Source: a virus (taxonomy: Duplodnaviria; Caudoviricetes). Taken from it: DNA of 59,711 bases. A model generated the notes under the pieces. The model worked only from the letters and a program-made list of their open reading frames with translations. It had not been told where the DNA came from and ran no database searches. Made by a program: the position numbers and the translations under genes. This document shows, in pieces, positions 11,261 through 30,838 of the stretch (position 1 is its first letter; the number at the start of each line of letters is the position of its first letter). The stretch lies in the IMG/VR virus record IMGVR_UViG_3300008448_000085, positions 1-59,711 of that record, one strand, 5' to 3'.

Positions 11261-11269
11261 GAGGCAATC

Positions 11270-16276: not shown

Positions 16277-16643
16277 GGTCTACCTCATGGTCCAAACAGG
16301 CAACGGCCACAACGGCATGGCCGGCGATGTCCATCAACGTCTCTCTTATGTCTATTGTCCGCAGGGAACCCCGGAGCCTGCGGCACTTCTCCCCCACCCG
16401 GGCGACTTGGTATTTCCACGGGATAATCCCGTCTTCCTTCACCCCAAGGGCGTTCTCCAGGGGGCTTTCCTTGCACCCGTAGTAACCCCGTTTCCGGGAG
16501 AGCAGCCGCCAGAGCTTGAGGCAGATGCCCCAGTACGGATCATCCGCCAACAGCTCTGAGAGTTCACCAAGCAATCTCTCGCAGCGCCCGCTGGATTCGG
16601 CCGTACTCAGCCCAGAAGGTGGGGTGATGGTGGGGGTCAGCAT
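16236..16643 (-). CDS. Nucleotide-modification-associated (DUF1599-like) helical protein
   Basis: KRGYYG...PLEN...RVGEKCRRL...IRETLMDIAGHAV pattern. Confidence 0.6.
   Translation of the reverse strand: MLTPTITPPSGLSTAESSGRCERLLGELSELLADDPYWGICLKLWRLLSRKRGYYGCKESPLENALGVKEDGIIPWKYQVARVGEKCRRLRGSLRTIDIRETLMDIAGHAVVAVACLDHEVDHESEDAAVASGSP
16345..16360 (-). promoter_or_regulatory. Putative late promoter motif
   Basis: GGACAAT-AGACA-TAAG upstream of the protease operon. Confidence 0.5.
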
Positions 16644-16908
16644 CGTTGTCCTCCGTGTCCACAAGGTAGTTACACCGGGCATGCGCCCACTCCTCAACAA
16701 AGCTGTCAACAAGGTTGTCCTTATCCTGGGTATTCAGCAGGCAGATGATTCCGCGGTCTTCCTCCGCGTCGAACTGGAACGTGCCCAGCGTGTTGTCCAT
16801 CTGCTTGCCCGACCGCAGGCATACCCGTACCGGAAACAGCAGGGGGAATCGGTTGTCCATCCACCGCTTCAGCCGCCGCAACAATTTCTTCCGCCAGTCT
16901 GGGTCCAT
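16564..16908 (-). CDS. SprT/zincin-like protein with EExxH variant motif
   Basis: FVEEWAH...HHHPTFW. Confidence 0.55.
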   Translation of the reverse strand: MDPDWRKKLLRRLKRWMDNRFPLLFPVRVCLRSGKQMDNTLGTFQFDAEEDRGIICLLNTQDKDNLVDSFVEEWAHARCNYLVDTEDNDADPHHHPTFWAEYGRIQRALREIAW

Positions 16909-17191
16909 CGGTGAGCCTCACAATAAGCAGCCAGTCCCTGCCGTTCCTGCGATGGAGGACAACCGGAACCTTGTCCCCGGCATCGCGAACGGCCTGATCC
17001 ATCCACCTATAGGGATTGCCTGCCTCGCACCGCTTGACCTCCAGATGTAGGTTTTCATGGGAGGAAACCACATCCGGCGACTCTGTTCCGCCAGCGAACT
17101 GCTGGCCACGCCGGGCCTGACCGCCAAAGATGGAGGCCCACTCCTTGGCTGCGTCCCTCTCGCCCCGGGCACCCTTGTCTCGGCTTCTCAT
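16721..17191 (-). CDS. Holliday junction resolvase, Hjc-like PD-(D/E)XK
   Basis: SRDKGARGER, SPDVV, LEVKR. Confidence 0.85.
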   Translation of the reverse strand: MRSRDKGARGERDAAKEWASIFGGQARRGQQFAGGTESPDVVSSHENLHLEVKRCEAGNPYRWMDQAVRDAGDKVPVVLHRRNGRDWLLIVRLTDGPRLAEEIVAAAEAVDGQPIPPAVSGTGMPAVGQADGQHAGHVPVRRGGRPRNHLPAEYPG

Positions 17192-17439
17192 CGCTTACAC
17201 CTCACGGTGATGAAGGTTCCGATGAACGCACCTGTGGCCAAGGGAAACAGGTACAGGATGTTCTTGGAGTAGGACACAACCCCAAAGGCCAAGAGGGAGT
17301 ACAGGACCGACGAGACGGCTGCCGCCTTAAGGGCGTTCCTCTCCTCCACGCAGATGATGTAGTAGGCGTAGAGCATGTCCACAACGATGTAGACCAGGAG
17401 GATCAGGGCGGCGGTTCCGAAAGAAAAATCGTCACTCAT
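17188..17439 (-). CDS. Small 3-TM membrane protein
   Basis: Hydrophobic throughout. Confidence 0.7.
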   Translation of the reverse strand: MSDDFSFGTAALILLVYIVVDMLYAYYIICVEERNALKAAAVSSVLYSLLAFGVVSYSKNILYLFPLATGAFIGTFITVRCKR

Positions 17440-17678
17440 TTATTCCACCTCGCATGCTGGAGTTGCGAGTGCCGGGCCTCTACTTCCTGGAGGTAGGGGA
17501 ACTGCTCAACGATGAGCTTCACCACCTCGCCCGACCGCTTCTTGTCCAGCACCCTGGCGTTCTGGTTGATCCACGTAGCCACGGGATTCCCCAGCTGCCG
17601 GTCGCGGCCTTCTGTCTCGGACTCCCACCAGTAGTCGATGGTGAAGGAGTTCGTCTTCACGCGGTCACCCGTCAGCAT
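17436..17678 (-). CDS. Hypothetical protein
   Basis: Coupled ORF. Confidence 0.6.
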   Translation of the reverse strand: MLTGDRVKTNSFTIDYWWESETEGRDRQLGNPVATWINQNARVLDKKRSGEVVKLIVEQFPYLQEVEARHSQLQHARWNK

Positions 17679-18048
17679 TGTCTGGCTCCCTGGAGGACAT
17701 GTAGGCGCCCATCACTTCCAGCATGTGGTGCGGCCTGTGTTTTCCGGCACCGACCGACAGGATGTAGGCCGACAGGGTTTCCCCGCTCTGGATGTCCGCG
17801 AGGTCGGCCACCAGCCGACCGTACTCGTCACGGATGCAGTCGTAGGGAATGAGCCTTAGCCGCTCGGCATCGGCGTGAATCTCGCACCAGTCAACGATGT
17901 GCTGCATGGCGTCATGGTGACACCACACGCCGGCCACGGTGACGGCCATCTCGTACCGCGACCGGGACAGGGGGCAGTACGTTTTGACCAGCAGCGTGTC
18001 ACTGCGGGTGACGCGGGAGATGGTGACTATGGGGTTCGACTCGTCCAT
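17665..18048 (-). CDS. Staphylococcal nuclease (thermonuclease)-like OB-fold protein
   Basis: DTL...VAGV...RDEYGRLVAD...ETLSAYILSVG. Confidence 0.65.
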   Translation of the reverse strand: MDESNPIVTISRVTRSDTLLVKTYCPLSRSRYEMAVTVAGVWCHHDAMQHIVDWCEIHADAERLRLIPYDCIRDEYGRLVADLADIQSGETLSAYILSVGAGKHRPHHMLEVMGAYMSSREPDNADG

Positions 18049-18425
18049 GATCCGACGTTGCGCTCTCGTTCCTTGAGGTAGAAGTCAGGCAGTGGGGCCG
18101 GCTCGTAACCGAGATGCTTCTTGTGCTTGAGGTAAGCCAGGAACTCAGGGCCATAGTTATCCGGGTCACACTCCTGCTTGAGGCCTAATAGTATACGCTT
18201 GTTCAGTTCCGGAAAGCAACCGACAATCTTGCCACTGTGGTAGATGCCGTGACAGCGGTCGCAGAGTCTCAAGTAATTCCGCACATCATGCTTGCGACCC
18301 GCGCCGCCGATGATGTGATGGACCTCCAAGCTGCGCCGGCCATCTGACTCAGGCCAGTGGCACACAGCACAACAGCGATGCTCGGCCACCCATTCCAGAA
18401 GGGCGGCACGTTCAGCCTTGTTCAT
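18027..18425 (-). CDS. HNH endonuclease
   Basis: CAVC...LEVHHI...NYLRLCDRCH. Confidence 0.85.
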   Translation of the reverse strand: MNKAERAALLEWVAEHRCCAVCHWPESDGRRSLEVHHIIGGAGRKHDVRNYLRLCDRCHGIYHSGKIVGCFPELNKRILLGLKQECDPDNYGPEFLAYLKHKKHLGYEPAPLPDFYLKERERNVGSWTSRTP

Positions 18426-18855
18426 TCTGTCTCTCCAGATCGCGAGACAGGTATTGGATGGCGCGCGACAGCCTGGACATGCACTCCCCATGCTCACCAG
18501 ACATGGCGATGTTGCAGAGGTGGCAGACAACGCCACGCACATGGCCAAGGTTGTGGCAGTGATCTATCCGAAGATCGGAACCGACTAGCGGTTTGCCGCA
18601 GCACTGGCAGTTGGGAACCTGCCAGAAAGCAAAGACCTCATCAACCGAAACCTTGTAATTGAGCGCTACCTTCTTGGCCCGATACAGAATCGGATCGGCC
18701 TTGCGCTTGCGACACTGCGACTCGCGAACCTTCCGGCACACGCATTCCTTGCAGTGCCAGTTCAATCCATCCGGGGTTTTGGCCCGCTTGCCAAACGCGC
18801 TGATCGGCTTGTCCTCGCCGCAGCTGGGGCACCTTTTCCGTGCTTCAGATATCAC
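18412..18855 (-). CDS. Endonuclease VII-like nuclease with N-terminal Zn finger
   Basis: CPSC...CKEC; CQCC...IDHCH..GHVRGVVCHLCN. Confidence 0.85.
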   Translation of the reverse strand: MISEARKRCPSCGEDKPISAFGKRAKTPDGLNWHCKECVCRKVRESQCRKRKADPILYRAKKVALNYKVSVDEVFAFWQVPNCQCCGKPLVGSDLRIDHCHNLGHVRGVVCHLCNIAMSGEHGECMSRLSRAIQYLSRDLERQNEQG

Positions 18856-18892
18856 GCTCCTTCATCGTTCCTACCTCCGTAGGGCGTGGCGT

Positions 18893-18920
18893 AGTGTACG
18901 GGCGATCACTTTTGAGTCAA
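18893..18920 (-). promoter_or_regulatory. Promoter TTGACT-N16-TACACT
   Basis: Upstream of EndoVII gene; identical boxes at 50551-50578. Confidence 0.65.
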
Positions 18921-18929
18921 CATTAGATC

Positions 18930-19240
18930 GCGAAGAGGCGCAGTGACTCCCAGCGAAAACGCCGGAAGTCAATCGCTTAGACCGCGATTTCGGCGGCAGC
19001 GACAGGATGCTGATTGTTTAACGCCGTTGTATCCTTCTCTCCCAGACACGGCGCTTGCGGTTGGCTGTGGCCCGGGGAGGGCGGAGTCACCAGTTCCCAT
19101 CCCCTCAGTCGCAAGAGTTCGGATGGATTGCCTTCCGGCGGGTCACATCCGTGTTGCCCCCTCTTGTTACATCCCATGCGGGACAGGTTGGCGGGGAGCC
19201 GATCTGCAGGCCATGTGCCCTTCCGCGGGCTATGTCGGTC
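18930..19240 (-). ncRNA. Putative ~310-nt structured non-coding RNA
   Basis: Own promoter, no credible ORF, many stems, GNRA loop, long-range 8-bp pairing. Confidence 0.6.
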
Positions 19241-19243
19241 CAA

Positions 19244-19271
19244 ATAATAACAGACTGTCTTCCTGAGTCAA
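19244..19271 (-). promoter_or_regulatory. Promoter TTGACT-N16-TATTAT
   Basis: Points into the 18930-19240 non-coding gap. Confidence 0.65.
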
Positions 19272-19960
19272 ATCGTCGCCAAGCCCTCTGGCGTGGCCCC
19301 AGAAGGCTGCATGCCTCCAGGCGGTACAGCCACCCCAGAAATAGTGGACGCCCGTCCAGCGTCACCTGCGGGCCTGTAATAGTATCTCTCGTCTTGGCTG
19401 ACATCCCACTCGCAGGACTCAGCCTGATAAATGTCCTTCTGCACCCGGTATCCGCACGCCACAGGATCGGGTGTGGCACCGCAGAAGTAGCCGTCCTTCC
19501 ATGCTATGCGATTGGTCGGCAGGGCCGCGAGGTTGCCGTCCTCCAAGGCCATGACATGGGCGCACTTGTTCTGTTCCGGCGTCAGTGTAAAGCCAGGGCG
19601 CTCTGACGAGTTGGGCAACCAATCGACTGTAAACAGGTAGCTGCCGGGGGCTTTGCCGGATCGCAGGTAGCAGTCTGCCTGATGATCTCTTAGGTACGAA
19701 AACACCGTCACAACCGGACGGTCGCTGAAGCAGTCCCAAAGCTGAACATCCCCCAGCGGTCGGCCGGCATGGCCGGTCAACGTCAGGGCATGGATTGGAA
19801 CCCCGCGGTAGTGCGCCCCTGATTTCAGCATGACATGAAAGCCCAGCGCCCTCCCGGTAATGGATTGTATGGCGAAGGCATAGGCCTCTTCATGTCCGGA
19901 GTTCTTGCTGATGAACTCTCGCCTGACGAAACAGCTCAGATACGGGATGTCAGCGTTCAT
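19268..19960 (-). CDS. Conserved hypothetical phage protein (NADIP...PIHAL...QLWDCFS...YLFTVDW)
   Basis: Motifs recurrent in aquatic phages. Confidence 0.75.
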   Translation of the reverse strand: MNADIPYLSCFVRREFISKNSGHEEAYAFAIQSITGRALGFHVMLKSGAHYRGVPIHALTLTGHAGRPLGDVQLWDCFSDRPVVTVFSYLRDHQADCYLRSGKAPGSYLFTVDWLPNSSERPGFTLTPEQNKCAHVMALEDGNLAALPTNRIAWKDGYFCGATPDPVACGYRVQKDIYQAESCEWDVSQDERYYYRPAGDAGRASTISGVAVPPGGMQPSGATPEGLATI

Positions 19961-20180
19961 CAATCTTCCACGCCTCTTCGCAGTCGAACACATTCGGCGC
20001 CCGCTCCCCGGCCTGTGACATGTCCACCACCCCCGGGTAGTGACGCATGAGCCGGCGAGCCTCATCGCGTACGTGGCGGGGGATTTTCTTGTATCCATCC
20101 GGCAGGCTGGGGTGCATCAGCCGCAGGAGAAAGCCCCTGGTGCTAAGGACTGATCGGGTTCGCTGGCTGGGAAGAGTCAT
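19950..20180 (-). CDS. BPSL0761-like small protein
   Basis: MTLPSQRTRSV...FLLRL...VRDEARRLMRHYP. Confidence 0.7.
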   Translation of the reverse strand: MTLPSQRTRSVLSTRGFLLRLMHPSLPDGYKKIPRHVRDEARRLMRHYPGVVDMSQAGERAPNVFDCEEAWKIDER

Positions 20181-20243
20181 GTGGTCACCAGAACGTATTA
20201 GAAAACGTGCGGTTTGCGTTGCTTTTCAATCATGACTGGGGTG

Positions 20244-20279
20244 TTACGCAGCAGCGTGCTGCATAATTGCTGGTTCTCA
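20244..20279 (+). mobile_element. Degenerate att half-site (left cassette boundary)
   Basis: Hairpin TTACGCAGCA/TGCTGCATAA + 6 bp + GTTCTCA (20273-20279), complementary to TGAGAAC at 20557. Confidence 0.5.
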
Positions 20280-20543
20280 GTCCCGATACTTCGCCTTGAG
20301 CGCCTTTAGCACCTTGCCTGCCGTTGTGTGTCCAGCCGCCGTCATCTCCAATCCGCCCAATAGAAAACCAGTCTGCTCGGCATACTTGCCCATCATTGTG
20401 ACCGCTTGATGCGCCGCTTCGCTCTGCCGCTTCAGCAACGCCCGAAGGGCTACGATCTCGTCGCGGGCATCATGGAGCGTCTCGCCGGCGTCTTCCGCTT
20501 CCCCGTCCTCCAGCCATCGGCTGATGCGTGTCACAACGTCCAT
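20277..20543 (-). CDS. Hypothetical protein inside putative cassette
   Basis: MDVVTRI...DARDEIVALR; stop codon lies in the GTTCTCA box. Confidence 0.7.
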   Translation of the reverse strand: MDVVTRISRWLEDGEAEDAGETLHDARDEIVALRALLKRQSEAAHQAVTMMGKYAEQTGFLLGGLEMTAAGHTTAGKVLKALKAKYRD

Positions 20544-20556
20544 GTCACTTTTCCCA

Positions 20557-20605
20557 TGAGAACCACGCGATGCAGCGGACGAGCCGCTGATCGCTGGCGT
20601 TCTCA
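20557..20605 (+). mobile_element. Integron attC-like recombination site (49 bp)
   Basis: R'' TGAGAAC-5 bp-L'' GATGCAGC (extra base)-9 nt-L' GCTGATC-6 bp-R' GTTCTCA. Confidence 0.7.
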
Positions 20606-20935
20606 TCCCCGCGTCCGCTCCAGCAAGGAGCGAAGTACGCCCGCTCTGTCTGACCACAGGCCGGCAAACGATTGCCGTCCATCGCATGCCGTGTTCAGCT
20701 CCTCCTCAACCTTGCATGCGGCAACAGCCATCTTGATGGCTGCCCGCTCCGCGTCGGTGAGCGGACTTCCCTTCACGCTCCACTCTTCGACTTCAAACTC
20801 CATGAACCCGCGACGGGCGTTCTCTTCGGCGACGTGGGCGTTTGCCGCCTCTTCGGTGGCGAAGATGTCAAACAGGTGCCACTCGTCTCCGTCCTCGCCG
20901 CTGCCGCCGTTGGTCACTAGCCATACGCTCGTCAT
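20603..20935 (-). CDS. Hypothetical protein (LTDAERAAI...LRSLLERT tail)
   Basis: Stop codon inside attC R'; shares C-terminal module with next gene. Confidence 0.7.
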   Translation of the reverse strand: MTSVWLVTNGGSGEDGDEWHLFDIFATEEAANAHVAEENARRGFMEFEVEEWSVKGSPLTDAERAAIKMAVAACKVEEELNTACDGRQSFAGLWSDRAGVLRSLLERTRG

Positions 20936-21300
20936 TTGGTTCTCTCCAGCAGTCTTCGCAGCGTGTCAGCGTACAGCCCGTCGCGCCCGTACCCGGCATA
21001 CCACTCTATGGCCTCACGCTCCTTAGCAGTGAGCGTCAAGTTTTCTTGCAAGGAATCTTGACAGTCCATCTGGATGATCACATCGCCATTGACCACTGAC
21101 AGCGTGGCGTCTTGGTCTGCGATGCGGCGGATCGCCTCCTTGAGGCTCGCGATCTCACGGCAGGCCCCGGCGCTGGAGTGGGCGTAGGTTTCGCACACCG
21201 TCACCAATCGCTCAATCTCATCGGCCGCTTCGTCGCAGAGCTTGTCTATAGCCTTGAACGAATACGCCCTATCCCGCAGGGAGTCCGTGAGTTTAGTCAT
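20932..21300 (-). CDS. Hypothetical protein (EAADEIERL; LTAKEREAI...LRRLLERT)
   Basis: ATGA coupling; recurrent phage motifs. Confidence 0.7.
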   Translation of the reverse strand: MTKLTDSLRDRAYSFKAIDKLCDEAADEIERLVTVCETYAHSSAGACREIASLKEAIRRIADQDATLSVVNGDVIIQMDCQDSLQENLTLTAKEREAIEWYAGYGRDGLYADTLRRLLERTK

Positions 21301-21378
21301 GGGTCATCATCAACAGGGAGGAAATCCAGATCAGTACTATTAGGAACAGGTCGGTCGGCATGGCGTCGATGTATTCCA

Positions 21379-21516
21379 TCACTCCCCCCAGACGTTAATG
21401 ACCTTGGCCTGGAGGCGTGTTACCTCGGCCTCCAATATCAGGATGCGTGCGCGCAACATAGCGTTCTCGCTCTTCAGTCTCTCCACCTCCTGAGAGGAAT
21501 AGTCCTGCGTCTCCAT
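21379..21516 (-). CDS. Small coiled-coil protein
   Basis: METQDYSSQEVERLKSENAMLRARI... Confidence 0.45.
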   Translation of the reverse strand: METQDYSSQEVERLKSENAMLRARILILEAEVTRLQAKVINVWGE

Positions 21517-22000
21517 CGACAAGGTCCAGATAGTGATGTGGGTATAGGAGGTCCGTGAGTTGGCTGGCCGGTCGCAAGAACTTCTTGGGGGCGACGAGCG
21601 TGGGGACATCATGCTTTCGCCCCCGGTCGTAAACCGTCTGCTCCTGCCAAGATTTGTCCCGATCAAGGGGAGTGAGCCACACCCACTCTCCGGTTGGCTT
21701 GGAGATGTAGATGTAGGCGAGGTGCTGCAGTCGCTCTCGTCCAAGACCTCGCATGTCATCAACGAAGACTGTGTCATAGGGGTAATCCTCCGGGGATGTG
21801 AATGTCAGGGACCGCTCCTTGATCTCTAGGCTGAACAGGCCAAGAGCATCGGGTGTCTCAACGTGATCCTTGTTCTTGTTGTGAACCCGCACTACCAGCT
21901 TCTTGCCGTGAGCCACCGACCGACCGGCCTCGCGAACAGACTCAACCCAGTTGCGTTCGGCTCGGTGCCCACCCTCAAGCGCTGAACGAAATGAACGCAT
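21395..22000 (-). CDS. PD-(D/E)XK nuclease-fold protein
   Basis: TPDAL...SLEIKER; GGAGGG RBS. Confidence 0.65.
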   Translation of the reverse strand: MRSFRSALEGGHRAERNWVESVREAGRSVAHGKKLVVRVHNKNKDHVETPDALGLFSLEIKERSLTFTSPEDYPYDTVFVDDMRGLGRERLQHLAYIYISKPTGEWVWLTPLDRDKSWQEQTVYDRGRKHDVPTLVAPKKFLRPASQLTDLLYPHHYLDLVDGDAGLFLSGGGETEERERYVARTHPDIGGRGNTPPGQGH

Positions 22001-22502
22001 TACCCCTCCATGAGACGGCCCGTATGGATATGGGAGATGGCGGGGTGTCCAGGTCGGACCTCCTGCCACCACCAAGCACGCGCTTGGATCGAAGCTCGGA
22101 CGCCAAGCGGTACACCTCCGCAAGGTCCGGGTCGCCGGGCTGAACGCCATCGTCCAGGTACTCCAAGTCCCAGCGGATCGGCTCGGCCTCGCGGATTTCG
22201 TCGGCCCATTCCCTTACAGTCGCAGCCCAGGTCGGCGACCGATCAAAGATTTCCGCGATGTCATCGTTGTCCAGGCCGTGATCCCGCATCACCACCAGGG
22301 CGAGGCGCTCAGGGCTTGGCACGCACGGCAAGCTCCGCAGCAGACGGGCCGCTCCGCGAATTTGCTCCCGGGGGAATCCCATCGTCCTGGCCACCTTCTC
22401 GGTCGCCTCCTTGTTCACCACAATCCGACGCCACAGGTCGGGGGCGAAAGCCAAAGCATGCCTTAACCGAATCCCACAGTCGGCTCCAAAAGCCTCGCTC
22501 AT
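21975..22502 (-). CDS. Helix-turn-helix DNA-binding protein
   Basis: EKVARTMGFPREQI and DDIAEIFDRSPTWA; GGAGG RBS. Confidence 0.6.
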   Translation of the reverse strand: MSEAFGADCGIRLRHALAFAPDLWRRIVVNKEATEKVARTMGFPREQIRGAARLLRSLPCVPSPERLALVVMRDHGLDNDDIAEIFDRSPTWAATVREWADEIREAEPIRWDLEYLDDGVQPGDPDLAEVYRLASELRSKRVLGGGRRSDLDTPPSPISIRAVSWRGNAFISFSA

Positions 22503-22614
22503 CTCTTTCCTCCTTGACGAACGTAACGGGAAAAACGTGATCAACTTCAAACTGATCCAAGATGCCTTGGAGCGTGTCATCCAACAGAGCATCAGGACGC
22601 TCTTGTGAGTCCAT
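22309..22614 (-). CDS. Hypothetical protein, overlaps next gene
   Basis: Starts at the helicase 3' end. Confidence 0.4.
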   Translation of the reverse strand: MDSQERPDALLDDTLQGILDQFEVDHVFPVTFVKEERDERGFWSRLWDSVKACFGFRPRPVASDCGEQGGDREGGQDDGIPPGANSRSGPSAAELAVRAKP

Positions 22615-23626
22615 GCCTTCGGTCCCTTTCCTTCTTGAACAAGCCTTTGACCCAGCCGTTGATGCCGGGATTGTTGACGGCCCAGTTGATGTAGTGGTCT
22701 GGCAGTTGCGACATCTTCAATCCGCCGTACTTCCCCTTGAGCGGGTTCATGTACGTGCCGACCGGCCGCTTGCCGCGCCACTGGATGTCGATGTCGCTGC
22801 CAACCACCCGTCCGGAAGCGCGGCCTTCAGTGGCCCGACGCATGGCTTCGATCTGCTGGGCAGCCAAGCGGCGCTCCAGCTCCTGCGCAGCCAGGGCATC
22901 CATCTCTTCCGGCGTCAGCGGCTCTTTGGCAGCCCGCTCGCGGATGACCTTCTTCGTCTCGCCGTCAGCCTCGCAGAACATGTCCACGGCGGTGATCAGC
23001 GAGTGGTCGATGGACCCGGTGGTGCAGTCAACAATCTTGAACCGCGTCTTCTTGCTGGCGGCAATCGCCGCCTTGCGTGACTCCGCGGTGCTGTTTGGGA
23101 AATCCACCACACCCGGGAGAGGGCGGGTCGCCCGGCCGACGCACTGCAGCCAGAACGACCTTGAGCGGGTGGGCCTGCCAAGGATCAGCGTGGCCGTAGG
23201 TGGATAGTCAAAACCCACGGCAACCACTTGGCAGTTGCACAGGACCTGCACCTCGCCCGACTTGAATCTCCGCAGCGCTTCAGCCCGCTCCTCTTCCGGC
23301 TGGGTGCCGTACACGTAGACGGCCGGCACGCCGTAGTTGTTGGTCAAATAATGAGCCACGCCCTTGGAACCGTTGACACTGGCGGTGAAGACCACGGTCT
23401 GGCCCTCACGCTCTTCGGCCGTGATCTGGCACACGCGGTGATGGGTACGTTCCTTGTCCATCTCTTCCTGCAGCGCCTTCTGCGCAAAGTCCCCGCCAAC
23501 GATCTTCACGCCCGACAAATCCAACGACTCCACCCGCGCTAGTCGGCAAACAGGGGGCACGGCCCATCCGTTGGCGATGGCCCACTGCATGTCGTATCCG
23601 CCGACGAGCTGTTCGTAGAATTGCAT
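22592..23626 (-). CDS. SF2 helicase, C-terminal (RecA2) half
   Basis: QTVVFT, NCQVVAVGFDYP (motif V), QCVGRATR (motif VI); GGAGGGAG just upstream. Confidence 0.85.
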   Translation of the reverse strand: MQFYEQLVGGYDMQWAIANGWAVPPVCRLARVESLDLSGVKIVGGDFAQKALQEEMDKERTHHRVCQITAEEREGQTVVFTASVNGSKGVAHYLTNNYGVPAVYVYGTQPEEERAEALRRFKSGEVQVLCNCQVVAVGFDYPPTATLILGRPTRSRSFWLQCVGRATRPLPGVVDFPNSTAESRKAAIAASKKTRFKIVDCTTGSIDHSLITAVDMFCEADGETKKVIRERAAKEPLTPEEMDALAAQELERRLAAQQIEAMRRATEGRASGRVVGSDIDIQWRGKRPVGTYMNPLKGKYGGLKMSQLPDHYINWAVNNPGINGWVKGLFKKERDRRHGLTRAS

Positions 23627-24129
23627 TGCTCCCTCCGAAGCATTGGTTTACCGTCCATCCGGAACGGGGTTGCCGTAAACCCGGCGACCATGGCCCCCTT
23701 CTCTTGGAAATGCCTGAGCATCTCCACCACGGGATCGCTGCACATCATGTGTGCCTCGTCCACAATCACCAGCTCAAAGTCAGTGAACCGCTCGTAGCGT
23801 TTCTGTCCTCCACGCCGAGACAGCAGCGTCTGCTTTGATGCCACCACAACCTTGGGCGTGAACCATTCGTCCGATCCCGCCCGGTACTCCGCCATCTCAA
23901 CGTCAGGGTCTTCCTCCAGAATCTCGCGGACCTTATCCACCGCCTGCCACAGCAACTCGCGCAGGGGGACGATGATCAACGTGCGGCCTGCCATGCGATT
24001 AGCGAGGCTGCAGAAGATCACCGTCTTCCCGGCGCCAGTGAACACATGATTCAACGTGGACTTCACTCCCGACCGCTTGGCCTGGAGGTTGTCTTCGATG
24101 ATCTGGTCTTGGTAGTCGCGGAGTAACAT
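23539..24129 (-). CDS. SF2 helicase, N-terminal (RecA1) half
   Basis: LRDYQ, TGAGKT, DEAH, TATP motifs. Confidence 0.88.
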   Translation of the reverse strand: MLLRDYQDQIIEDNLQAKRSGVKSTLNHVFTGAGKTVIFCSLANRMAGRTLIIVPLRELLWQAVDKVREILEEDPDVEMAEYRAGSDEWFTPKVVVASKQTLLSRRGGQKRYERFTDFELVIVDEAHMMCSDPVVEMLRHFQEKGAMVAGFTATPFRMDGKPMLRREQCNSTNSSSADTTCSGPSPTDGPCPLFAD

Positions 24130-24143
24130 CGCTCATCCTTGAG

Positions 24144-24182
24144 AGAAACCCGGGGGCTGGGAGGAGGTGCCCAACCCCCGGG
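24144..24182 (-). terminator. Intrinsic terminator after ssb
   Basis: CCCGGGGG...CCCCCGGG stem + TTTCT on minus strand. Confidence 0.55.
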
Positions 24183-24195
24183 CGGCGCGCACTTA

Positions 24196-24534
24196 TCAAC
24201 GGAAGTCGGACGCGAACTCTTCCTCCACAGCCTCGCGGCGCTTGCCACCGCAGAGCTGCACCTTCATCGCCCGGACGATCTTGCGGCTCTTCCGCTCACC
24301 GTCCTTCTCCCAGGACTGCGTCTGAATCTCCCCCTCCACCAGCACCTGAGTGCCGCGGGTGAGGTACTCCATCACGCCGCCCGGCTTCCACATCTCGCAG
24401 TCGAAGTACTCCACGGAGTCCTTGTAGCCATTGACGGCCACAGAGAACTTCGCCACCTCCGACTCGCCGGCCATCCGAGACTCGGCGTCCTTGGTCAGAT
24501 TGCCAAGGCAAATGAACCGCTGATACCCACTCAT
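24196..24534 (-). CDS. ssb: Single-stranded DNA-binding protein
   Basis: LGNLTKDAE...YLTRGTQVLVEGEI; acidic C-tail. Confidence 0.92.
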   Translation of the reverse strand: MSGYQRFICLGNLTKDAESRMAGESEVAKFSVAVNGYKDSVEYFDCEMWKPGGVMEYLTRGTQVLVEGEIQTQSWEKDGERKSRKIVRAMKVQLCGGKRREAVEEEFASDFR

Positions 24535-25223
24535 GCTTGGACCTCCGTTTCCCATACCTTCTTGAACTCGGCCTCAACCCGGTGGAACACTTCCACAGGG
24601 ACAGCCTTTTCCTTCGCACGCAGACGCACCATGTCTAGGTGCTTCTTCGCTTGATCCTTGTTGTCTGCCTCGTTGATGGCGTTGATGGCGCCTTGGAGGT
24701 AGACCATGTGCTTCGGTTCAGTCTTGACCTCTGGCTTCTTGCCGGTGGCCGACTGCTCGGCGCCCCTGCCTGACGCACGGTTGCCGTCATCGTCCTCCTC
24801 GCCAACCCAGGCGCCGACGAGGTCCAGCAACGCATATCGCTTGGCGTAGGTCTTCGCAGAGCCAAGGCCCTGCATGTCCGGTGGCTGCGTCCCGTTCTTT
24901 GTTTCTCGCGGCAGGTTGATGAGCGGCACCAGGGTGGATGTCCACTCCCCAGAGCCGTGCTTCAAAACCCCAAGGCAACACCATCCCATCTCGGGGCCAT
25001 ACCAGCCGGTGTGATACGTGGGCATCGCGAAGCCCTCTTCGGTCAGCAAGCCAACAAGCTCGTTGCAGATGGTCGCCAAGTCCGCATACTTGCTGCGGAA
25101 GTGAGGGTTGTCCTTCTTCTTGGCAATCGTTTCCATCTTCTTGTGAACATTGATCAGCGCAGCGGTGTGCTGCTTCAGCTCTGGACTAGACGACGGGCCA
25201 ACGCCCTCATGTGAATACTTCAT
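24531..25223 (-). CDS. erf: ERF-family ssDNA annealing protein
   Basis: KDNPHFRSKYADL; QGLGSAKTYAKRYAL. Confidence 0.9.
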   Translation of the reverse strand: MKYSHEGVGPSSSPELKQHTAALINVHKKMETIAKKKDNPHFRSKYADLATICNELVGLLTEEGFAMPTYHTGWYGPEMGWCCLGVLKHGSGEWTSTLVPLINLPRETKNGTQPPDMQGLGSAKTYAKRYALLDLVGAWVGEEDDDGNRASGRGAEQSATGKKPEVKTEPKHMVYLQGAINAINEADNKDQAKKHLDMVRLRAKEKAVPVEVFHRVEAEFKKVWETEVQA

Positions 25224-26080
25224 ACTTCCACGTACTCCTCTTCCTTCTGTGCCCACGCCGGGACAACGAGTTCCTTGATCTCGTTCGCGTCAGCCGGCAG
25301 ATACATGCCGGTGGAGCGGCGTAGACGAACTTCCTCCATTACGTTCCGCATCCGCCGGCCAGCAGCTTCAACGAGGGCCTCGGGCAGATGAAAGACCTTG
25401 GTCCTGTACGGCGGCGTCGTTGCGACAAAGACGAACGGCATGCGGAAGTGATCCATGCCGATGGCCTTGGCCGACTCCACGTACAGCCATTCCTGCTCGT
25501 AGTAGCCGTAGTCCTTCGCGCTGAAGAACAGCTTGTCCCACGGTTGGCTTGTGGTCTTGAGGTCCCACCACAGGTCGGCACAGCAGGCGTCGGGACGGGT
25601 CTTCAGTGCATGGCCGTCGATTTCAAAGAACACAGAGACTTGCGTCTCAACCGTCCGCTCCATCAGTGATCGGCAGGCCTCGTTCTGCTGCATGCCGTCC
25701 AGCATGTAGGCGTAGACCTGGGCCTGATCCTCAGTGGTGATGACGGTGCCATCCCGCTGATGCTCGGCAGCCCACTCCTTGTACGCCTTGGTGGAGCGAG
25801 AACCGTTGGCCCCCAGCACATCGTCAGGCGGGGTTACCACAACGTCCTTGAACAGCCTGCCGCCAAGAATCTCGGTGATGATGGTGTCGAATTCCGACCC
25901 CTTGCTGGTGGCAGAGTTACCGCCCCAGAACACCCGGCCAGAGTCAAGCCACTGCTGAACCTCGCCGCCGTACTTGGCGACCGTGTGGAGGAACGACCGC
26001 GAGTCGAACTCAGTTTCCATCCGGTACGCCTGATTGCTCATGCCGATCACCTTGGTCGGCAACTCCGTGATAGTGGTCAT
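25220..26080 (-). CDS. RecE/exonuclease VIII-like PD-(D/E)XK exonuclease
   Basis: QVSVFF...KTRPD...WDLKTT...YYEQ..Y; adjacent to erf. Confidence 0.85.
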   Translation of the reverse strand: MTTITELPTKVIGMSNQAYRMETEFDSRSFLHTVAKYGGEVQQWLDSGRVFWGGNSATSKGSEFDTIITEILGGRLFKDVVVTPPDDVLGANGSRSTKAYKEWAAEHQRDGTVITTEDQAQVYAYMLDGMQQNEACRSLMERTVETQVSVFFEIDGHALKTRPDACCADLWWDLKTTSQPWDKLFFSAKDYGYYEQEWLYVESAKAIGMDHFRMPFVFVATTPPYRTKVFHLPEALVEAAGRRMRNVMEEVRLRRSTGMYLPADANEIKELVVPAWAQKEEEYVEV

Positions 26081-26097
26081 CCGTACACCTCCAGTTA

Positions 26098-26120
26098 AAG
26101 AAAGCCCCGTCCATGGGGCA
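26098..26120 (-). terminator. Intrinsic terminator upstream of exonuclease gene
   Basis: GCCCC-ATGGAC-GGGGC-TTTCTTT on minus strand. Confidence 0.55.
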
Positions 26121-26131
26121 GGGTCGATCCA

Positions 26132-26347
26132 TCAGTCCCCGTCCGTGGGGAAGAACTCCTTGATCGCTTCGCTCAGGTGTCCAAGCACCAGAAGGGTGCA
26201 GACTGCCCCTACGCGGTTGAGCCAGAGGGCTGCGGTCAGTGCGGCGAGAAACGCCAGCCGTAAGATTCGGTGGTCCCGAAGAAACACCCAGGCTAGGGCA
26301 CTCTTGAGAGTGCTGTAGCCAATTGAGCTAGGGGTGCTTGGTCGCAT
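26132..26347 (-). CDS. Possible leaderless 71-aa membrane protein spanning attP
   Basis: ATG 7 nt below the TACAAT box; two hydrophobic segments. Confidence 0.4.
   Translation of the reverse strand: MRPSTPSSIGYSTLKSALAWVFLRDHRILRLAFLAALTAALWLNRVGAVCTLLVLGHLSEAIKEFFPTDGD
26311..26337 (-). mobile_element. Putative attP core: 5' fragment of a tRNA (probably tRNA-Arg)
   Basis: GCACCCCTAGCTCAATTGG-CTACAGCA matches acceptor 5' strand + D-arm pattern; ~95 bp upstream of integrase. Confidence 0.7.
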
Positions 26348-26353
26348 GTGCGG

Positions 26354-26382
26354 ATTGTATCGCATGCACCGGGGTGTTGAAA
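26354..26382 (-). promoter_or_regulatory. Promoter reading into the tRNA fragment
   Basis: TTTCAA-N17-TACAAT. Confidence 0.55.
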
Positions 26383-26431
26383 GACGCCCTTCTTCGGGAG
26401 ACATTACGCCGCTCTTGAGGAGGGTATAGCC

Positions 26432-27247
26432 ATGCGACTGATCGACTTCGCCCTTGACTACGCGATAAAGATTGGGGCCAGCCCCGGCTACACCGAGCAG
26501 CTCCGCGTCCTGACCAAACGGCTGCCATGGGAAACGACCGACCTCACGGTCAATCGCATCGACGGCTACCTCACACAGGCTCTCCATAGCCTCGCTCCCC
26601 AGACAGTCCAGAACCACCGCCGAATGCTCAACACGCTTCGCAGAGCGGCCCTCCGACGCGGCTTGGTGGTGGACGATTGTACAGACCCGCTGCGGCGTGT
26701 CAAGTGCAACCATCCCCTCCCCAGAGCCTGGACACATGCCGAGATACGCCGGCTCATAGAAGTCGCCAAGGAAATGCCGCGTGGCACGGCCCACTGCCCG
26801 TGGAAGATTCTCCTCCCGGCGTGGATTCTGGTGTCCTACAGCAGCGGGCTGCGGCTCGGAGATATGCTGGCGCTGACGCATGAGTCCATCCGTGGAAACA
26901 AGCTGGCGATTGTGATGGCCAAGACCCGCCGTCCGCATGTTGTCATGCTGGACGAAGCGGCCCTCCTCGCCATCGGCTCCCTCCCTCGCAGAGGCCCCCG
27001 CATCTTCGGGGACTTGGTCGGAAGGTGCGTGTTTATACGCGCGTTCCGACGATTGGTCAAACGGGCCGGGCTGTACGGCAGTGGCAAATACCTGCGTAGA
27101 AGCAGTGCCACCTATGCGGTAATCGCCGGCCAAGACCCCACTGGACACTTAGGACACGCCACGGCCGGGCTGGCCCAGAAACATTATGTAGACCCGGTCT
27201 TGGTCGCAGATGCCAAGCAGCCGGTGCCGAGCCTATCGAACCCCTAG
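26432..27247 (+). CDS. int: Tyrosine recombinase / phage integrase
   Basis: SGLRLGD (R), KT (K), KYLRRS (HxxR variant), LGH, HY (Tyr); GAGGAGG RBS. Confidence 0.88.
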   Translation: MRLIDFALDYAIKIGASPGYTEQLRVLTKRLPWETTDLTVNRIDGYLTQALHSLAPQTVQNHRRMLNTLRRAALRRGLVVDDCTDPLRRVKCNHPLPRAWTHAEIRRLIEVAKEMPRGTAHCPWKILLPAWILVSYSSGLRLGDMLALTHESIRGNKLAIVMAKTRRPHVVMLDEAALLAIGSLPRRGPRIFGDLVGRCVFIRAFRRLVKRAGLYGSGKYLRRSSATYAVIAGQDPTGHLGHATAGLAQKHYVDPVLVADAKQPVPSLSNP

Positions 27248-30200
27248 AATTTCCATGGGGGCCATCTCTGCCTTCTTCTTTTCGCGGGCACGCTGGGCTG
27301 CCTCGGACTGCAAGATTTTGTAGAGGAGGTAGAGTCGCCGCTGATCTTCCGGCATCTTCCGCAGAACATCTTCGGGCACGGTGAGGTTTTCGTACGTGCG
27401 GACGCCAGGGGTCGCGGTCAGCAACTCGTTGAGCGTGTTCCTCGCCGCAAGCTGCTTGGTCCGCTCTTGGTCGATGTCGGTGATCTTCACGCCCAGCGTG
27501 TTGTTGACGAGCAACTTCAGCGCTCGCTCGGCTGGCGTCAGCCGGTTATCCATCGCCGTGCGGGCCAAGGACATGGCCTTTGATCCGCCCGGGGCATTGA
27601 CCAACACTTGCTCGGCCGCGCGGGCAAGCGGGCCGTACTGGGGGTCTACGGCATTCTCTAGCACTGAGTACACATCCGACAGCTCGCGTCCGCTGTAGAG
27701 CTGGCGGTTCAGCACCATCTCAAGCGGCGCCTTGATCAGCGGGTTGAGCTGACCGAGCAGGTTCATGCCGGTCTTCTGTAGCGAATCCACCACACGCTGC
27801 GAGGCAGTGTTGCCGATGCCGGGCGAGAACAGGTTGATCAGGCCTTCGTAGGGAAGATCAATGTTGTTGATGACGCGCTGAAGGTTCTCGGCCGGCTGTC
27901 CTCCAAACTCTGGCGGCAGGGCAATCGCTGCCGACTGCCGCAGATGCTCGGGGAGGAACGACCCTTCTCGCGGCTGCGAGGCTCGGGTAACCGCACGGAT
28001 CGTCTGCCCCTGTAATCCGCCGGGGCGGTACAGGATGTTCTCCGCGACCAGCGGGGCAATGCCGCGCGTGTAGGAATAAAACGGCACCAGCTTCTTTAGC
28101 CGTCGCTCAAAGTCCGTAAACGCCTGCGGGCTGTAGTCCACCTGTGTCTTGAACACGGCTTGCGCCGCGGCGTCTGGCGAGTAGCCCTGGCGAAGGGCAG
28201 AGATGTAGGTGCCGAGACGATTGGCATCTTCCACTCGCCGGCCGACTCGCTCATGGAGATCGATGAGTGGGTTCAGCGTCCTAGAGGGGGCGTCTTCTCC
28301 TCGCAGCAATGCGCCCGGACCATTGACTCCGCGGATGGTTGCCCACTCACGCCATGTCCTGTCAGGGTCATACAGCAGCCCGCCGTCGCCAACCCATGGA
28401 ACGGACCTCTGAGTATCGCCGCCAGGGTAAAGAGCTTGGGCTGCTTGCTCGGGGATACCTTCGGACTCGCTGACCAGCCCGCCGCCAAGCCGGTTGCGGG
28501 CTGCCTCCATCTTGAACTTGTCGATGCGTTCTTCTGGCAACAGCGCTTCGTACCCCGGCGCCGTACTGAGGCGCTCCTCAACAGACGGCACCAGCCCGAA
28601 CAGACTTCGCTGGTCGTAGTTCCCCTTGCCCGCCTGTACGCCAACCAGCCAGTTCACAAAGTTTTGTGCTGGGTTCTGATCGCCCTGAGTCAGGCTGGAG
28701 ATGAATCCCGAATAGGCGTTCCGCGTGTGGTAGGCCGGATTGGCCAGAGCCAGAACCTTAAACAGGTTGGTGTAGGAATCGTACGACCTCCCCAGCAGCG
28801 AGTCTGCCTTCTGTTGATTCAGCGGCGATAGCTTTTTGAGGTCGGCAACGACGCTTTGGGGCACGGACGCGGCCCCGACATCCACGCCCGGCAGTCGCCG
28901 CTCTAGAACCTCTCGCAGCGCGGCCGGCTCAAAGCCCAGCTCCGCAGCCGCCTCCAGCAAGTTGACTGCGCCACCGGCCGGCATCACGTTGGCGGGAATC
29001 TGCGAGACGTTATTGATCAGTTCGTCCGCAATGACCTGAGCGTTGGCCTGCGACTTTGCGTGCCCCGACAGGTAGCGGGCCATCTCGTTGATTGGCGACT
29101 GATCGAACAGGCCAACGTTGTTCTGGGCAAACTGGTTGTCGGCCCGAATCAGCATGTCTCCGAGCTGGACCTTGAGAGAATCCTGCTGGAGCTTTGCGGC
29201 AGCGTCCGCGTCAGCCTGCTTGCGTAGTAGCGAATTGAGTCTTTGCTGCCATTCGGATCGCTCGGAGTCAAGGAGCGTCGGGTCGCTCAGAAACTCACGC
29301 AGGCTTTCGGCCGTGTGGCCATTGTCGGAAATCTGTTGGACGCCAACCTTGTTGTACGGCGCCTCCATGCCCAACTCGGTGAAGGCCTCGTCAATAATGC
29401 CCGGGGTCTGGAGGTCGTTTGCCCCGACAAGGCGAGATCGCAGGTTCTGCCCAAAGTCGCCCGACATGAGCCTGCGGAATGTCTCGGCTCGCCGCGGAAG
29501 GTCGGTCTTCAAGTCGCGGCTTCGGCCGACCACATCATCCAGGTTCAAGACCCGGGCGCCGCGGGAGTATGGGTTCTCCCTGGCCCGCACCCGACCGGGA
29601 AGATCAAGCAAGTCCGGTGCGTCAAAGTAGATCGCCTGCGACGGGAAGAACCCCACGTTCTCCAGGCTGTTGGCCACAGGGATGCTTCGGCCGACCGACG
29701 CCGCCTCGTCCCTGGCCTGAGCCAGCCGCTCCGCCATTGAGTCGCGGAACTGCTTCCATTCCGGAACTGCGTACAGCGCCGCGACGGCCTGCTGGTCTTG
29801 GAGGCCCAGCAAGTCTGTGGGCGATTCGATGGTGTCGCGAATTGCGTTTTGAATACGCGGGTCGTTGAACGTGAAGTCCGCGTGCTGCCCCTTCTCGGCG
29901 CCAAGGACCTGCTCGGCAAGCCATTGCCGAGAGTCTCTCTGGTTTTTGCCGGCTTCTGCGAACGCCTCGCGGTTACGCCACTGCTTGTCGTAATCAACTT
30001 CGCCCATCACGCTCGGATCGAACGCTGCGGTGGTGCGATTAAGGACAGGTCCAGTGAATGGGTTTCGTCTGGCCCTCTCGCCAAGCGTGTCTAGCGCCCT
30101 AGCGGCCATGTCCCCAGCCGCTCCGCCGACGACGTTGAAGCCGCGCTCAGTCCCCGGAATGCGGAAATCAAACATGCCGGCAAGTGGCTGATCCAAGAGA

Positions 30201-30838
30201 TCGTCTGGATTAAGCCCCTTGCCGCGAGCGGCGTCGGCAAACCTGCTAAACGCATCGGTGTCATCCGACATGCCGATGATCCCGCGGCCCGTGGTGGACC
30301 GCATGAACTCGCGGATGCCCTTGCCTTGCTGGCGGGCCAAGAGTGCGGCATTGTCTAGCAAGCCGGCGCGGCTGGCCGTGCGGGCCGCAGTGCTGTACGC
30401 GCCCTTGCCAAGCATGGCCCACGGCGCGAAGTACGTAGTCGGGTCAAGCGCCACCTCGGCAGCAATGCCAGCCGCGAAGTTGGACCACGTATCATCATTG
30501 CCAGTCATCCCGAACTGACGCAGCAGTTCGCGGCCCTCCACACGCTCGTCGGACGTTTGGCCGAGCGCCCGCAGCCCACGGAACGGATCGCCGTCTGCAA
30601 GCCCAGAGATTGTCCCGCGGACCATAGCCCCCGGTGTATCCAGCAACCAGCCTAAGCCGGTCAGTCCGGAAGCGCCGATATTTGACAGGGACTGCAGAAC
30701 GCTCTGACGCTCCTCCTCTGGCATGAGGTCGGAGATTTTGCGCCGGCGGCGCTCGCCCGTTAGCGGATCGACTTCGTACTGCTCGTCCAGCAGGCTGTTT
30801 GGGTCATAGATATCAAACAGCGGGGAGAGGGCCATCAA
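27233..30838 (-). CDS. Large internal virion / DNA ejection protein (1201 aa)
   Basis: Size and position at end of virion operon; VDYS...FE...LVPFYSY motif. Confidence 0.7.
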   Translation of the reverse strand: MMALSPLFDIYDPNSLLDEQYEVDPLTGERRRRKISDLMPEEERQSVLQSLSNIGASGLTGLGWLLDTPGAMVRGTISGLADGDPFRGLRALGQTSDERVEGRELLRQFGMTGNDDTWSNFAAGIAAEVALDPTTYFAPWAMLGKGAYSTAARTASRAGLLDNAALLARQQGKGIREFMRSTTGRGIIGMSDDTDAFSRFADAARGKGLNPDDLLDQPLAGMFDFRIPGTERGFNVVGGAAGDMAARALDTLGERARRNPFTGPVLNRTTAAFDPSVMGEVDYDKQWRNREAFAEAGKNQRDSRQWLAEQVLGAEKGQHADFTFNDPRIQNAIRDTIESPTDLLGLQDQQAVAALYAVPEWKQFRDSMAERLAQARDEAASVGRSIPVANSLENVGFFPSQAIYFDAPDLLDLPGRVRARENPYSRGARVLNLDDVVGRSRDLKTDLPRRAETFRRLMSGDFGQNLRSRLVGANDLQTPGIIDEAFTELGMEAPYNKVGVQQISDNGHTAESLREFLSDPTLLDSERSEWQQRLNSLLRKQADADAAAKLQQDSLKVQLGDMLIRADNQFAQNNVGLFDQSPINEMARYLSGHAKSQANAQVIADELINNVSQIPANVMPAGGAVNLLEAAAELGFEPAALREVLERRLPGVDVGAASVPQSVVADLKKLSPLNQQKADSLLGRSYDSYTNLFKVLALANPAYHTRNAYSGFISSLTQGDQNPAQNFVNWLVGVQAGKGNYDQRSLFGLVPSVEERLSTAPGYEALLPEERIDKFKMEAARNRLGGGLVSESEGIPEQAAQALYPGGDTQRSVPWVGDGGLLYDPDRTWREWATIRGVNGPGALLRGEDAPSRTLNPLIDLHERVGRRVEDANRLGTYISALRQGYSPDAAAQAVFKTQVDYSPQAFTDFERRLKKLVPFYSYTRGIAPLVAENILYRPGGLQGQTIRAVTRASQPREGSFLPEHLRQSAAIALPPEFGGQPAENLQRVINNIDLPYEGLINLFSPGIGNTASQRVVDSLQKTGMNLLGQLNPLIKAPLEMVLNRQLYSGRELSDVYSVLENAVDPQYGPLARAAEQVLVNAPGGSKAMSLARTAMDNRLTPAERALKLLVNNTLGVKITDIDQERTKQLAARNTLNELLTATPGVRTYENLTVPEDVLRKMPEDQRRLYLLYKILQSEAAQRAREKKKAEMAPMEILGVR

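Follow-up and report, generated by a model that had tools for sequence, protein, structure and literature searches.

A predicted phage attachment site copied from the 5′ end of tRNA-Arg(ACG) in a family of uncultured phages

Most integrases that target tRNA genes restore the 3′ end of the gene, as is stated in the available text of PMC6563490 and PMC8371274 and as the first-pass annotation of the DNA described here had also assumed. At the classical attachment sites, following the accessible part of the Islander description (PMC4383910), the integrase gene lies beside a core that copies one end of the tRNA up to the gene boundary, and the identity of the tRNA switches within an integrase family while the sublocation within the tRNA stays fixed. 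The classical classes (anticodon loop, T-loop and 3′ end) restore the 3′ part of the tRNA and leave the host promoter in place. According to PMC8371274, recombinant bacterial tRNA genes use their original promoter 'with very few exceptions', and in bacteria an arrangement involving the 5′ half is 'seldomly encountered'. Integration on the 5′ side is regarded as a rarity because the element must then replace the promoter. The same source describes it for pTN3-like archaeal integrases, which target a tRNA gene's 5′ half, after which the tRNA is expressed from the integrase promoter. For Bacteria, an element reported by Zhao and Williams in 2002 is cited as an uncommon case that recombines with the 5′-distal part of a tRNA (cited passages in PMC6563490 and PMC1635311), and Klebsiella pneumoniae islands at the 5′ end of arg2, upstream of the tRNA, have been described by authors who call the D-loop a novel sublocation (bioRxiv 10.1101/2020.11.02.365908, as far as its available text goes). 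Here, we describe a tyrosine integrase gene and its adjoining predicted phage attachment site (attP) in the IMG/VR virus record IMGVR_UViG_3300008448_000085 (Duplodnaviria; Caudoviricetes), which probably belong to this less common type.

The window, i.e., the whole stretch of DNA that was analyzed, is the complete virus record of 59,711 bases, which carries direct terminal repeats, is estimated to be 100% complete and has a G+C content of ~60%. The segment in question is, in our judgment, probably the attP of a temperate freshwater phage of ~60 kb for integration on the 5′ side of a tRNA gene, at the D-loop, with the tRNA promoter supplied by the phage; our confidence in this reading is good rather than high because of the gap left by the lysogen junctions. 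The parts on which it rests are the following, with coordinates referring to the window:

26432..27247, plus strand: tyrosine integrase of 271 amino acids, starting 94 nt from the core and reading away from it
26338..26431, no strand assigned: divergent control region (P arm) of 94 nt between the integrase start and the core
26337..26319, minus strand: predicted attP core, GCACCCCTAGCTCAATTGG, 19/19 identical to positions 1-19 of tRNA-Arg(ACG)
26318..26311, minus strand: partial tRNA likeness, CTACAGCA, with 6/8 matches (25/27 together with the core)

The core spans the 5′ strand of the acceptor stem, positions 8-9, the D-stem's 5′ strand and the D-loop. When the sequence was re-read and each element indexed, every element that the first-pass annotation had listed was found on the minus strand where it had been placed. 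The annotation had also predicted a tRNA-Arg as the source, to be sought by comparing the core with tRNA genes. A scan for the 19-mer that used one genome per GTDB species returned at least 120 loci, and in the large majority of these the 19-mer is the exact 5′ end (positions 1-19, 19/19 from +1) of a full tRNA-Arg, the anticodon being ACG; ARAGORN calls Arg(acg) in loci examined with it. The 100 loci with distinct upstream DNA carry labels that are mostly from Planctomycetota (Pirellulales, Planctomycetales, Gimesia, Schlesneria and others) among the matches listed. In IMG/VR, the exact 19-mer occurs in 26 stretches, three of which are true tRNAs according to ARAGORN (two tRNA-Arg(acg) and one tRNA-Lys(ttt)) and 23 of which are not; in the window itself, ARAGORN finds no tRNA gene. 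The match between the 19-mer and the tRNA is far beyond chance. In the manner of a tRNA-gene attP, the predicted core adjoins an integrase and reproduces one tRNA end as far as the gene boundary; the part that it carries is from the 5′ side and not from the 3′ side. The next eight nucleotides (26311..26318) likely form the core-type site of the P′ side. Furthermore, the core holds the inverted repeats TAGC (positions 8-11) and GCTA (positions 19-22) around the 7-nt sequence TCAATTG (positions 12-18); the resulting TAGC-TCAATTG-GCTA may represent two core sites that flank an overlap of 7 bp.

The protein encoded next to the core matches the integrase family phrog_1 in PHROG (E-value 3e-16), and its match to the Pfam family Phage_integrase (PF00589; E-value 9e-6) scores 26 bits, slightly below the gathering cut-off of 27.1. 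An alignment of 14 family members shows no variation at R141, K164, R222 (in KYLRR), H242 and Y252, and we take these to be the catalytic residues, going by the order of the motifs. With these residues and a significant profile match, the protein is a member of the tyrosine recombinase/phage integrase superfamily. Judged from its length, there is no sign of an arm-binding N-terminal domain. The sole matches in NCBIfam are weak Xer-type ones far under the cut-off, and the integrase profile had no match to PDB sequences at E ≤ 0.01.

The arrangement of core and integrase is shared by a large group of viral sequences. In 22 of the 23 non-tRNA IMG/VR stretches, a full integrase with 46-99% identity lies at the same distance and in the same orientation, the remaining one being cut at the edge of the locus. 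The exonuclease follows in 21/23 and Erf in 20/23 (36-100% identity), and in 21 the same large open reading frame (ORF) ends before the integrase. A tail gene, the integrase and the core come in the same order throughout this set. Within these 23 viral relatives, a block of 19-23 nt is identical while the DNA on either side has diverged. When metagenomes were scanned with 14 aligned integrases, further relatives came up, of which the best 80 of 100 were kept (43-99% identity). A GCACCCC-type core is found within three mismatches in 53 of these 80 loci; the other 27 have another tRNA-like start (GGGCAGCTAGCTCAGTTGG, GCGCGCGTAGCTCAGTTG or GGGCAACTAGCTCAGTTG) or a flank that is cut short. The GGGCAGC version of the 19-mer occurs in 15 IMG/VR stretches, all of them family members with integrases that are 44-52% identical and with no tRNA called by ARAGORN. 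Together with the window, these sets form a family of 119 loci (23 IMG/VR, 80 metagenome and 15 GGGCAGC IMG/VR loci), in which the integrase start was placed by tblastn. In 118 of the 119, seven nucleotides followed by TAGCTCA[AG][TC]TG lie 45-108 nt upstream of the integrase on the opposite strand, and in the last one the flank is truncated.

Conservation across the family was profiled with 89 unique sequences that were aligned on tRNA +1 and anchored on positions 8-18. The fraction of the majority base is 0.28-0.57 at every position from -40 to -1, rises to 1.00 at +1 and +4 and 0.96 at +7, and is 0.99 at +21 and 0.83 at +23, with background values from +24 onwards. The complete conservation of positions 8-18 is partly built into the alignment, whereas neither the step at +1 nor the decay after +23 is. 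Intermediate conservation at +2, +3, +5, +6 and +15 mirrors the different target tRNAs. The acceptor strands fall into the types GCACCCC (56 of the 89), GGGCAGC (26), GCGCGCG (4), GGGCAAC (2) and GGACAGC (1), and these cluster on the integrase tree, which was a quick maximum-likelihood tree of 96 distinct integrases with midpoint rooting only: nine changes of type are needed, against a least possible number of five and a mean of 43.9 after shuffling, and none of 200 shuffles gave a number as low. This is the profile that would be expected of an attP core, exact from the first base of the gene, drifting past the crossover and re-targeted as the integrase diverges. Exactness from tRNA +1 would follow because that part ends up in a working tRNA. 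As at the classical sites, the tRNA target thus appears to have switched several times within the family while the sublocation remained fixed.

A different role for the same proteins and sites has to be considered at this point. The short recombinase (271 amino acids) with its Xer-type matches and the small TAGC/GCTA inverted repeat around a 7-nt centre could also belong to a Cre/Xer-like resolvase acting on a lox- or dif-like site, which would resolve plasmid-prophage or replication multimers, in which case the site would not be a chromosomal one and the serine recombinase encoded elsewhere in the phage, or nothing at all, would integrate it. The presence of that second recombinase would suit such a role, as would the fact that no lysogen was found in the loci and genomes searched. 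However, a resolution site needs neither to start at tRNA +1 nor to copy a real acceptor strand, has no reason to switch to other tRNA 5′ ends in step with the integrase clades, and does not need a promoter before it or a terminator behind it. We consider a resolvase role improbable and keep to the interpretation as a tRNA-derived attP.

On its P-arm side, the core is preceded by promoter-like boxes that point toward it, and on its P′ side it is followed by a palindrome, the remainder of a small ORF, a terminator-like hairpin and the early genes:

26382..26377, minus strand (region 26376..26382): -35-like box TTTCAA (TTTCAA/TTCAAC), 3/6 matches to TTGACA
26359..26354, minus strand: -10-like box TACAAT, following TTTCAA after a 17-nt spacer and lying 16 nt before tRNA +1
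26347..26132, minus strand: small hydrophobic ORF of 71 codons, with its ATG at 26347, 10 nt before the core, so that the core is translated within it
26313..26298, minus strand: palindrome GCACTCT-CA-AGAGTGC with outer pairing GCTA/TAGC (fold -15.2 kcal/mol, z -2.0)
26119..26097 (feature 26119..26094), minus strand: intrinsic-terminator-like hairpin GCCCCATGGACGGGGC (GCCCC-ATGGAC-GGGGC) with a 5-bp stem, followed by TTTCTTT
26080..25220, minus strand: exonuclease VIII-like PDDEXK protein (Pfam/PHROG), the first early gene behind the terminator
25256..24531, minus strand: Erf annealing protein (Pfam/PHROG), following the exonuclease on the same strand as the core

In the window alone, the -35-like box, the terminator and the palindrome are weak, and it is comparison with relatives that rescues the -10-like box and the terminator. 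A hexamer with at least 5/6 matches to TATAAT, with A2 and T6 required and ending between -22 and -5, is present in 37 of the 89 unique relatives, compared to a mean of 2.5 and a maximum of 7 in 200 shuffles and to none in two control windows. These hexamers are mostly TACAAT (16) and TATACT (13), and many other relatives have TATAAC or TACAAC, forms that fail the T6 requirement. In several clades (judged by eye and uncounted), a TCAAC box with a C-run is found 16-17 nt upstream of the -10 box. The -35-like box reads TTGAAA on the plus strand and could instead be used by an integrase promoter. Promoter activity in front of the core is what these boxes suggest.

The hairpin is likewise unremarkable in the window by itself, with one site against 0.6 expected and a fold of -11.2 kcal/mol (z -1.56). 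Among the relatives, a hairpin with a T-run lies ~200 nt past +1 in 56 of 85 unique sequences, compared to 0/85 for a control region in the exonuclease and 3/85 after shuffling. Its stem is usually GCCCC/GGGGC and in other cases GCCGC/GCGGC or GCCTC/GAGGC, which are paired changes that keep the helix. A GC-rich stem, a T-run and paired changes are features of an intrinsic (Rho-independent) terminator, which the hairpin appears to be. Only 23 nt, which include GGAGG, separate it from the exonuclease ATG at 26080, and with such a short interval that already holds a ribosome-binding site, transcription of the early operon from the core side must cross the hairpin. At the position of the palindrome, a stem with different loops is kept in the four closest clade members (L175-L177 and L189).

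The region of the core is open for translation in all 90 unique relatives, in frame 0 in 55 (APLAQL) and in frame 2 in 35 (TPSSI), and the frame differs even among phages with an identical core. With two reading frames running through it, the core must be conserved at the level of the DNA and not of the coding sequence. Most of the 90 frames extend ~47-90 codons past the core, and five run into the exonuclease frame. Many of the small ORFs have in common (by eye and uncounted) a P-I-[IL]-R motif, a stretch of hydrophobic residues and LGQ[LF]G, and the ratio of nonsynonymous to synonymous substitution rates (dN/dS) is 0.11-0.64 in 10 pairs, excluding the first nine codons. The small ORF had no match in Pfam, PHROG or NCBIfam; its features suggest that it encodes a genuine small membrane protein. 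The window has an ATG ahead of the core (at -10), as do some of the relatives, but many members of the family are without one.

These features could also be read as an expressed RNA or small-protein gene, in which the tRNA-like leader acts at the RNA level as a decoy, a processing signal or an element of translational control, with the attP being elsewhere. A promoter-like box, an ORF under purifying selection and a terminator do make up, throughout the family, a compact unit of ~250 nt, as such a gene would. However, the 3′ strand of the D-stem (raw positions 24-26) is not conserved, so that the RNA could not form a D-arm, and the conserved block stops at the expected end of an att overlap and holds a fixed place beside the integrase, both of which fit an attP. 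A role in RNA or protein and a role as attP are moreover not exclusive. As a replacement for the attP, such a gene seems highly improbable to us.

If the segment is an attP, integration may proceed as follows. The tyrosine integrase would recombine the phage copy of positions 1 to ~19 with the 5′ part of the host tRNA-Arg(ACG), with the crossover probably in the D-loop, within the 7-bp TCAATTG between TAGC and GCTA. The D-loop is proposed as the overlap region because of these inverted repeats and because the shortest run of identity to the tRNA among AATTG-type relatives is 18 nt. Insertion on the 5′ side would part the host promoter from the body of the tRNA. The attR junction would then consist of the integrase gene, the phage promoter, phage positions 1 to the crossover and the host remainder of the tRNA, and the rebuilt tRNA would be transcribed from the outward-facing phage promoter. 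The attL junction would begin with the host promoter and the host's positions 1 up to the crossover, and would continue with the phage P′ side, the small ORF, the terminator and the early operon; the terminator would shield the recombination operon (exonuclease, Erf, SSB and helicase) from the host tRNA promoter. tRNA-Arg(ACG), with inosine, reads CGU, CGC and CGA and is the decoder of most CGN codons. In five of five large Planctomycetota genomes, the ACG anticodon arm is found exactly once per genome; because it is single-copy in these, insertion at the 5′ end without a promoter would be very costly, which offers a reason for the conserved promoter box. A full reciprocal exchange, in which tRNA-Arg(ACG) of the lysogen runs on the phage promoter and the host promoter is wired, by way of the displaced tRNA fragment, to the membrane protein and, past a gated terminator, to the recombination genes, is a bolder proposal that we put forward tentatively and think rather unlikely to hold.

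The first-pass annotation had gone further and suggested that integration itself is the lysis-lysogeny switch: by moving the promoter to the tRNA, it would silence the recombination operon and disrupt the small ORF, and no repressor would be needed. This agrees with a Pfam scan of 141 ORFs from 1..26200 (≥50 amino acids, G+C at third codon positions (GC3) ≥0.62), in which no helix-turn-helix or CI-type match was found, as the annotation had observed; the scan is a weak negative, as ORFs below 50 amino acids or below a GC3 of 0.62 were skipped and any of dozens of unannotated small genes could be a repressor. In addition, the 23 nt between the terminator and the exonuclease ATG leave no room for a separate promoter, and in this phage the ATG of the small ORF lies on the P-arm side of the core. 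However, the geometry contradicts the claim that integration cuts the recombination operon off from a promoter, as the operon would come to lie behind the host tRNA promoter and be re-promoted rather than silenced, and the sole limit on it is the terminator, which is present before and after integration. The disruption of the small ORF fits the ATG of this phage, but is no feature of the family, since many relatives have no ATG upstream of the core. The chances that integration acts as the switch are accordingly slim, and we return to the more limited proposal of an attP with its own tRNA promoter.

Several observations weigh against that proposal. No integrated form was found in the 80 metagenome loci kept, all of which have the attP form with at most 43/75 matches to the tRNA, or in 38 related viral loci (23 with the Arg-type core and 15 with the GGGCAGC core). 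In a tblastn search of the listed 120 genome loci with the 19-mer, six proteins of the window gave one weak SSB match and no integrase, and 401 Planctomycetota genomes contained no relative of the integrase at E ≤ 1e-10. The GGGCAGC 19-mer was absent (0/301) from Planctomycetota genomes. The host is not pinned down, Planctomycetota being the best guess at its phylum: among the matches listed, the 19-mer also opens the tRNA-Arg(ACG) of one metagenome-assembled genome (MAG) of Opitutales, with the same tRNA body in two further loci, and ten of its occurrences are tRNA-Lys from Nocardioidaceae (Aeromicrobium, Nocardioides or like). A promoter scanner run on both strands called no promoter in the window, where the -35 box is weak, and a comparable -10 box stands in 16/100 upstream regions of host tRNA-Arg genes (shuffle mean 5.1, maximum 12); this weak enrichment leaves the promoter rules of the host unclear. 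The phage also has a second site-specific recombinase beside the tyrosine integrase, a serine recombinase of 280 amino acids (11313..12155, plus strand) that matches Pfam Resolvase (E-value 7e-29) and PHROG integrase/DNA invertase families. Finally, the host islands described below that carry displaced tRNA fragments have no integrase and are unrelated to this phage. Of the first-pass claims, that of an attP made from a tRNA 5′ end is well supported by the start at the tRNA, the adjoining integrase and the attP-like conservation, with no attL or attR junction found in the loci and genomes searched; that of an own promoter before the tRNA 5′ end retains the family-wide enrichment of a promoter-like box, but neither the scanner nor the -35 box with 3/6 matches adds to it.

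The absence of a lysogen may mean that lysogens are rare, that the hosts lie outside the searched genomes, or that integration seldom takes place. Four public runs were also compared with 25700-26950; three contig sets span the core in the attP form, and nothing was found in the raw-read run. A 171-nt contig was considered as a junction and rejected, as it diverges inside the P arm and not at the core and is thus a relative. The public runs give no evidence either way on integration. With regard to the GGGCAGC and GCGCGCG cores, five large Planctomycetota genomes contain matches with one mismatch only, to Val, Gly and Ile tRNAs.

Integration at the 5′ side of this tRNA does seem to occur in Planctomycetota. 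Truncated 5′ copies of tRNA-Arg(ACG) are found in 5 of the listed 120 loci, and 4 of them break at +19 to +23, where the P′ sides of the phages diverge. The displaced 5′ fragments come from four Planctomycetota MAGs. In one of these, G005, 5953 bp separate the fragment from the full tRNA downstream of it, the two being in direct orientation (L159, G005:C31, 2293..8320); three RAMP-domain (CRISPR type III-like) proteins and a DUF7689 protein are encoded on the island between them, which has no integrase. Its layout is the one to be expected of integration on the 5′ side and, according to PMC4383910, also the one that Islander accepts. G001 has one contig that carries the fragment and another that carries the full tRNA, with nearly the same 50 nt upstream in both, which resembles an occupied and an unoccupied site within a single population. 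The displaced fragments show that integrating elements use the D-arm of this tRNA in Planctomycetota. A strict terminator search directly behind the displaced fragments in the host MAGs returned nothing convincing.

Three of these loci (L162, L166 and L159) share repeats of the form ATTTG[CA]CCCT[AG]T[TC]T ~80-110 nt past the displaced fragment. The repeats suggest one island family at the same 5′ site and are possibly arm-type binding sites. The fifth truncated copy, at 6303 on the minus strand of L165 (G004:C210), diverges only after the anticodon arm, and two or more sublocations of tRNA-Arg(ACG) appear to be used in Planctomycetota. Separately, an 18,181-bp viral fragment (L173, 15831..18181) has an integrase with 29% identity that is divergent from a complete tRNA-Arg(ACG) and holds the same place with respect to the structural genes. 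The tRNA is followed by an XRE-type regulator and a CsrA-like ORF, and the downstream DNA matches none of the listed 120 host loci; the fragment may be the attR of a prophage, or else come from a phage in which the whole tRNA stands where this family has the 5′ end alone.

Compared to the described systems, the predicted site has most in common with the pTN3 type, for which, in the available text of PMC8371274, attB is the tRNA gene's 5′ half and the rebuilt tRNA depends on a promoter borne by the element. The archaeal pTN3/SSV-type integrases are 'suicidal', as described there: their att site is internal to the integrase gene, integration splits that gene, and the integrase promoter then drives the tRNA. 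In contrast, the core of the phage lies 94 nt outside the integrase ORF and on the other strand, so that the integrase would stay intact and not be of the suicidal kind. In further contrast to the pTN3 type, the phage has a separate promoter-like box before the core, directed away from the integrase, an ORF and a terminator behind the core, and a bacterial host. The reverse-orientation element of Zhao and Williams is bacterial too and uses the 5′ part of a tRNA, a likeness that is drawn from citations of that work alone. The Klebsiella arg2 islands resemble the phage in lying at the 5′ end, upstream of the tRNA, going by their description alone in the accessible part of the preprint, but are found in Enterobacteria and have long integrases with standard N- and C-terminal domains. 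With the classical sites, the phage shares the integrase beside a core that copies one tRNA end to the gene boundary, as well as the switching of tRNA identity at a fixed sublocation; unlike them, it would restore the 5′ part and must bring a promoter. No account that brings together Planctomycetes, a prophage, an integrase and tRNA-Arg came up in a literature search. Insertion at the 5′ side of a tRNA gene is known but rare, and what is new is the layout of the cassette and the size of the family.

The attP region had no megablast match among GenBank phages. On the strand of the core, the gene order is small ORF, exonuclease, Erf, SSB and helicase (Pfam/PHROG matches from the exonuclease onwards), and the large ORF that ends beside the integrase (27233..30838) had no family match. 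The helicase is present as two minus-strand ORFs in different frames with an 88-nt overlap, 24129..23539 (ResIII/DEAD) and 23626..22592 (Helicase_C), which may reflect a split gene, a frameshift or an error in the assembly. The scan of 141 ORFs that was made for repressors also returned the serine recombinase, a subtilase, an HNH protein, an endonuclease VII and a weak match to sigma-70 region 2 or a late sigma factor (11992..12702, minus strand; Pfam E-value 1e-4, PHROG E-value 6e-4). If the sigma match is real, a sigma factor made by the phage may redirect transcription.

More than 100 related contigs of uncultured phages share this compact cassette of a promoter box, a tRNA 5′ end, a small ORF and a terminator. 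Island and prophage finders that are tuned to 3′ fragments of tRNAs will miss such elements, and for a phage group without a cultured host the core provides a handle for host prediction. The family also forms a natural series in which to follow how a short integrase reads the D-arm and how its targets are re-programmed. If the reciprocal promoter exchange were true, the translation capacity of the host and the early expression of the prophage would be tied together, and the family would define a whole lineage of D-loop integrases, short and arm-less, that belong to freshwater phages of bacteria of the Planctomycetes-Verrucomicrobia-Chlamydiae (PVC) type.

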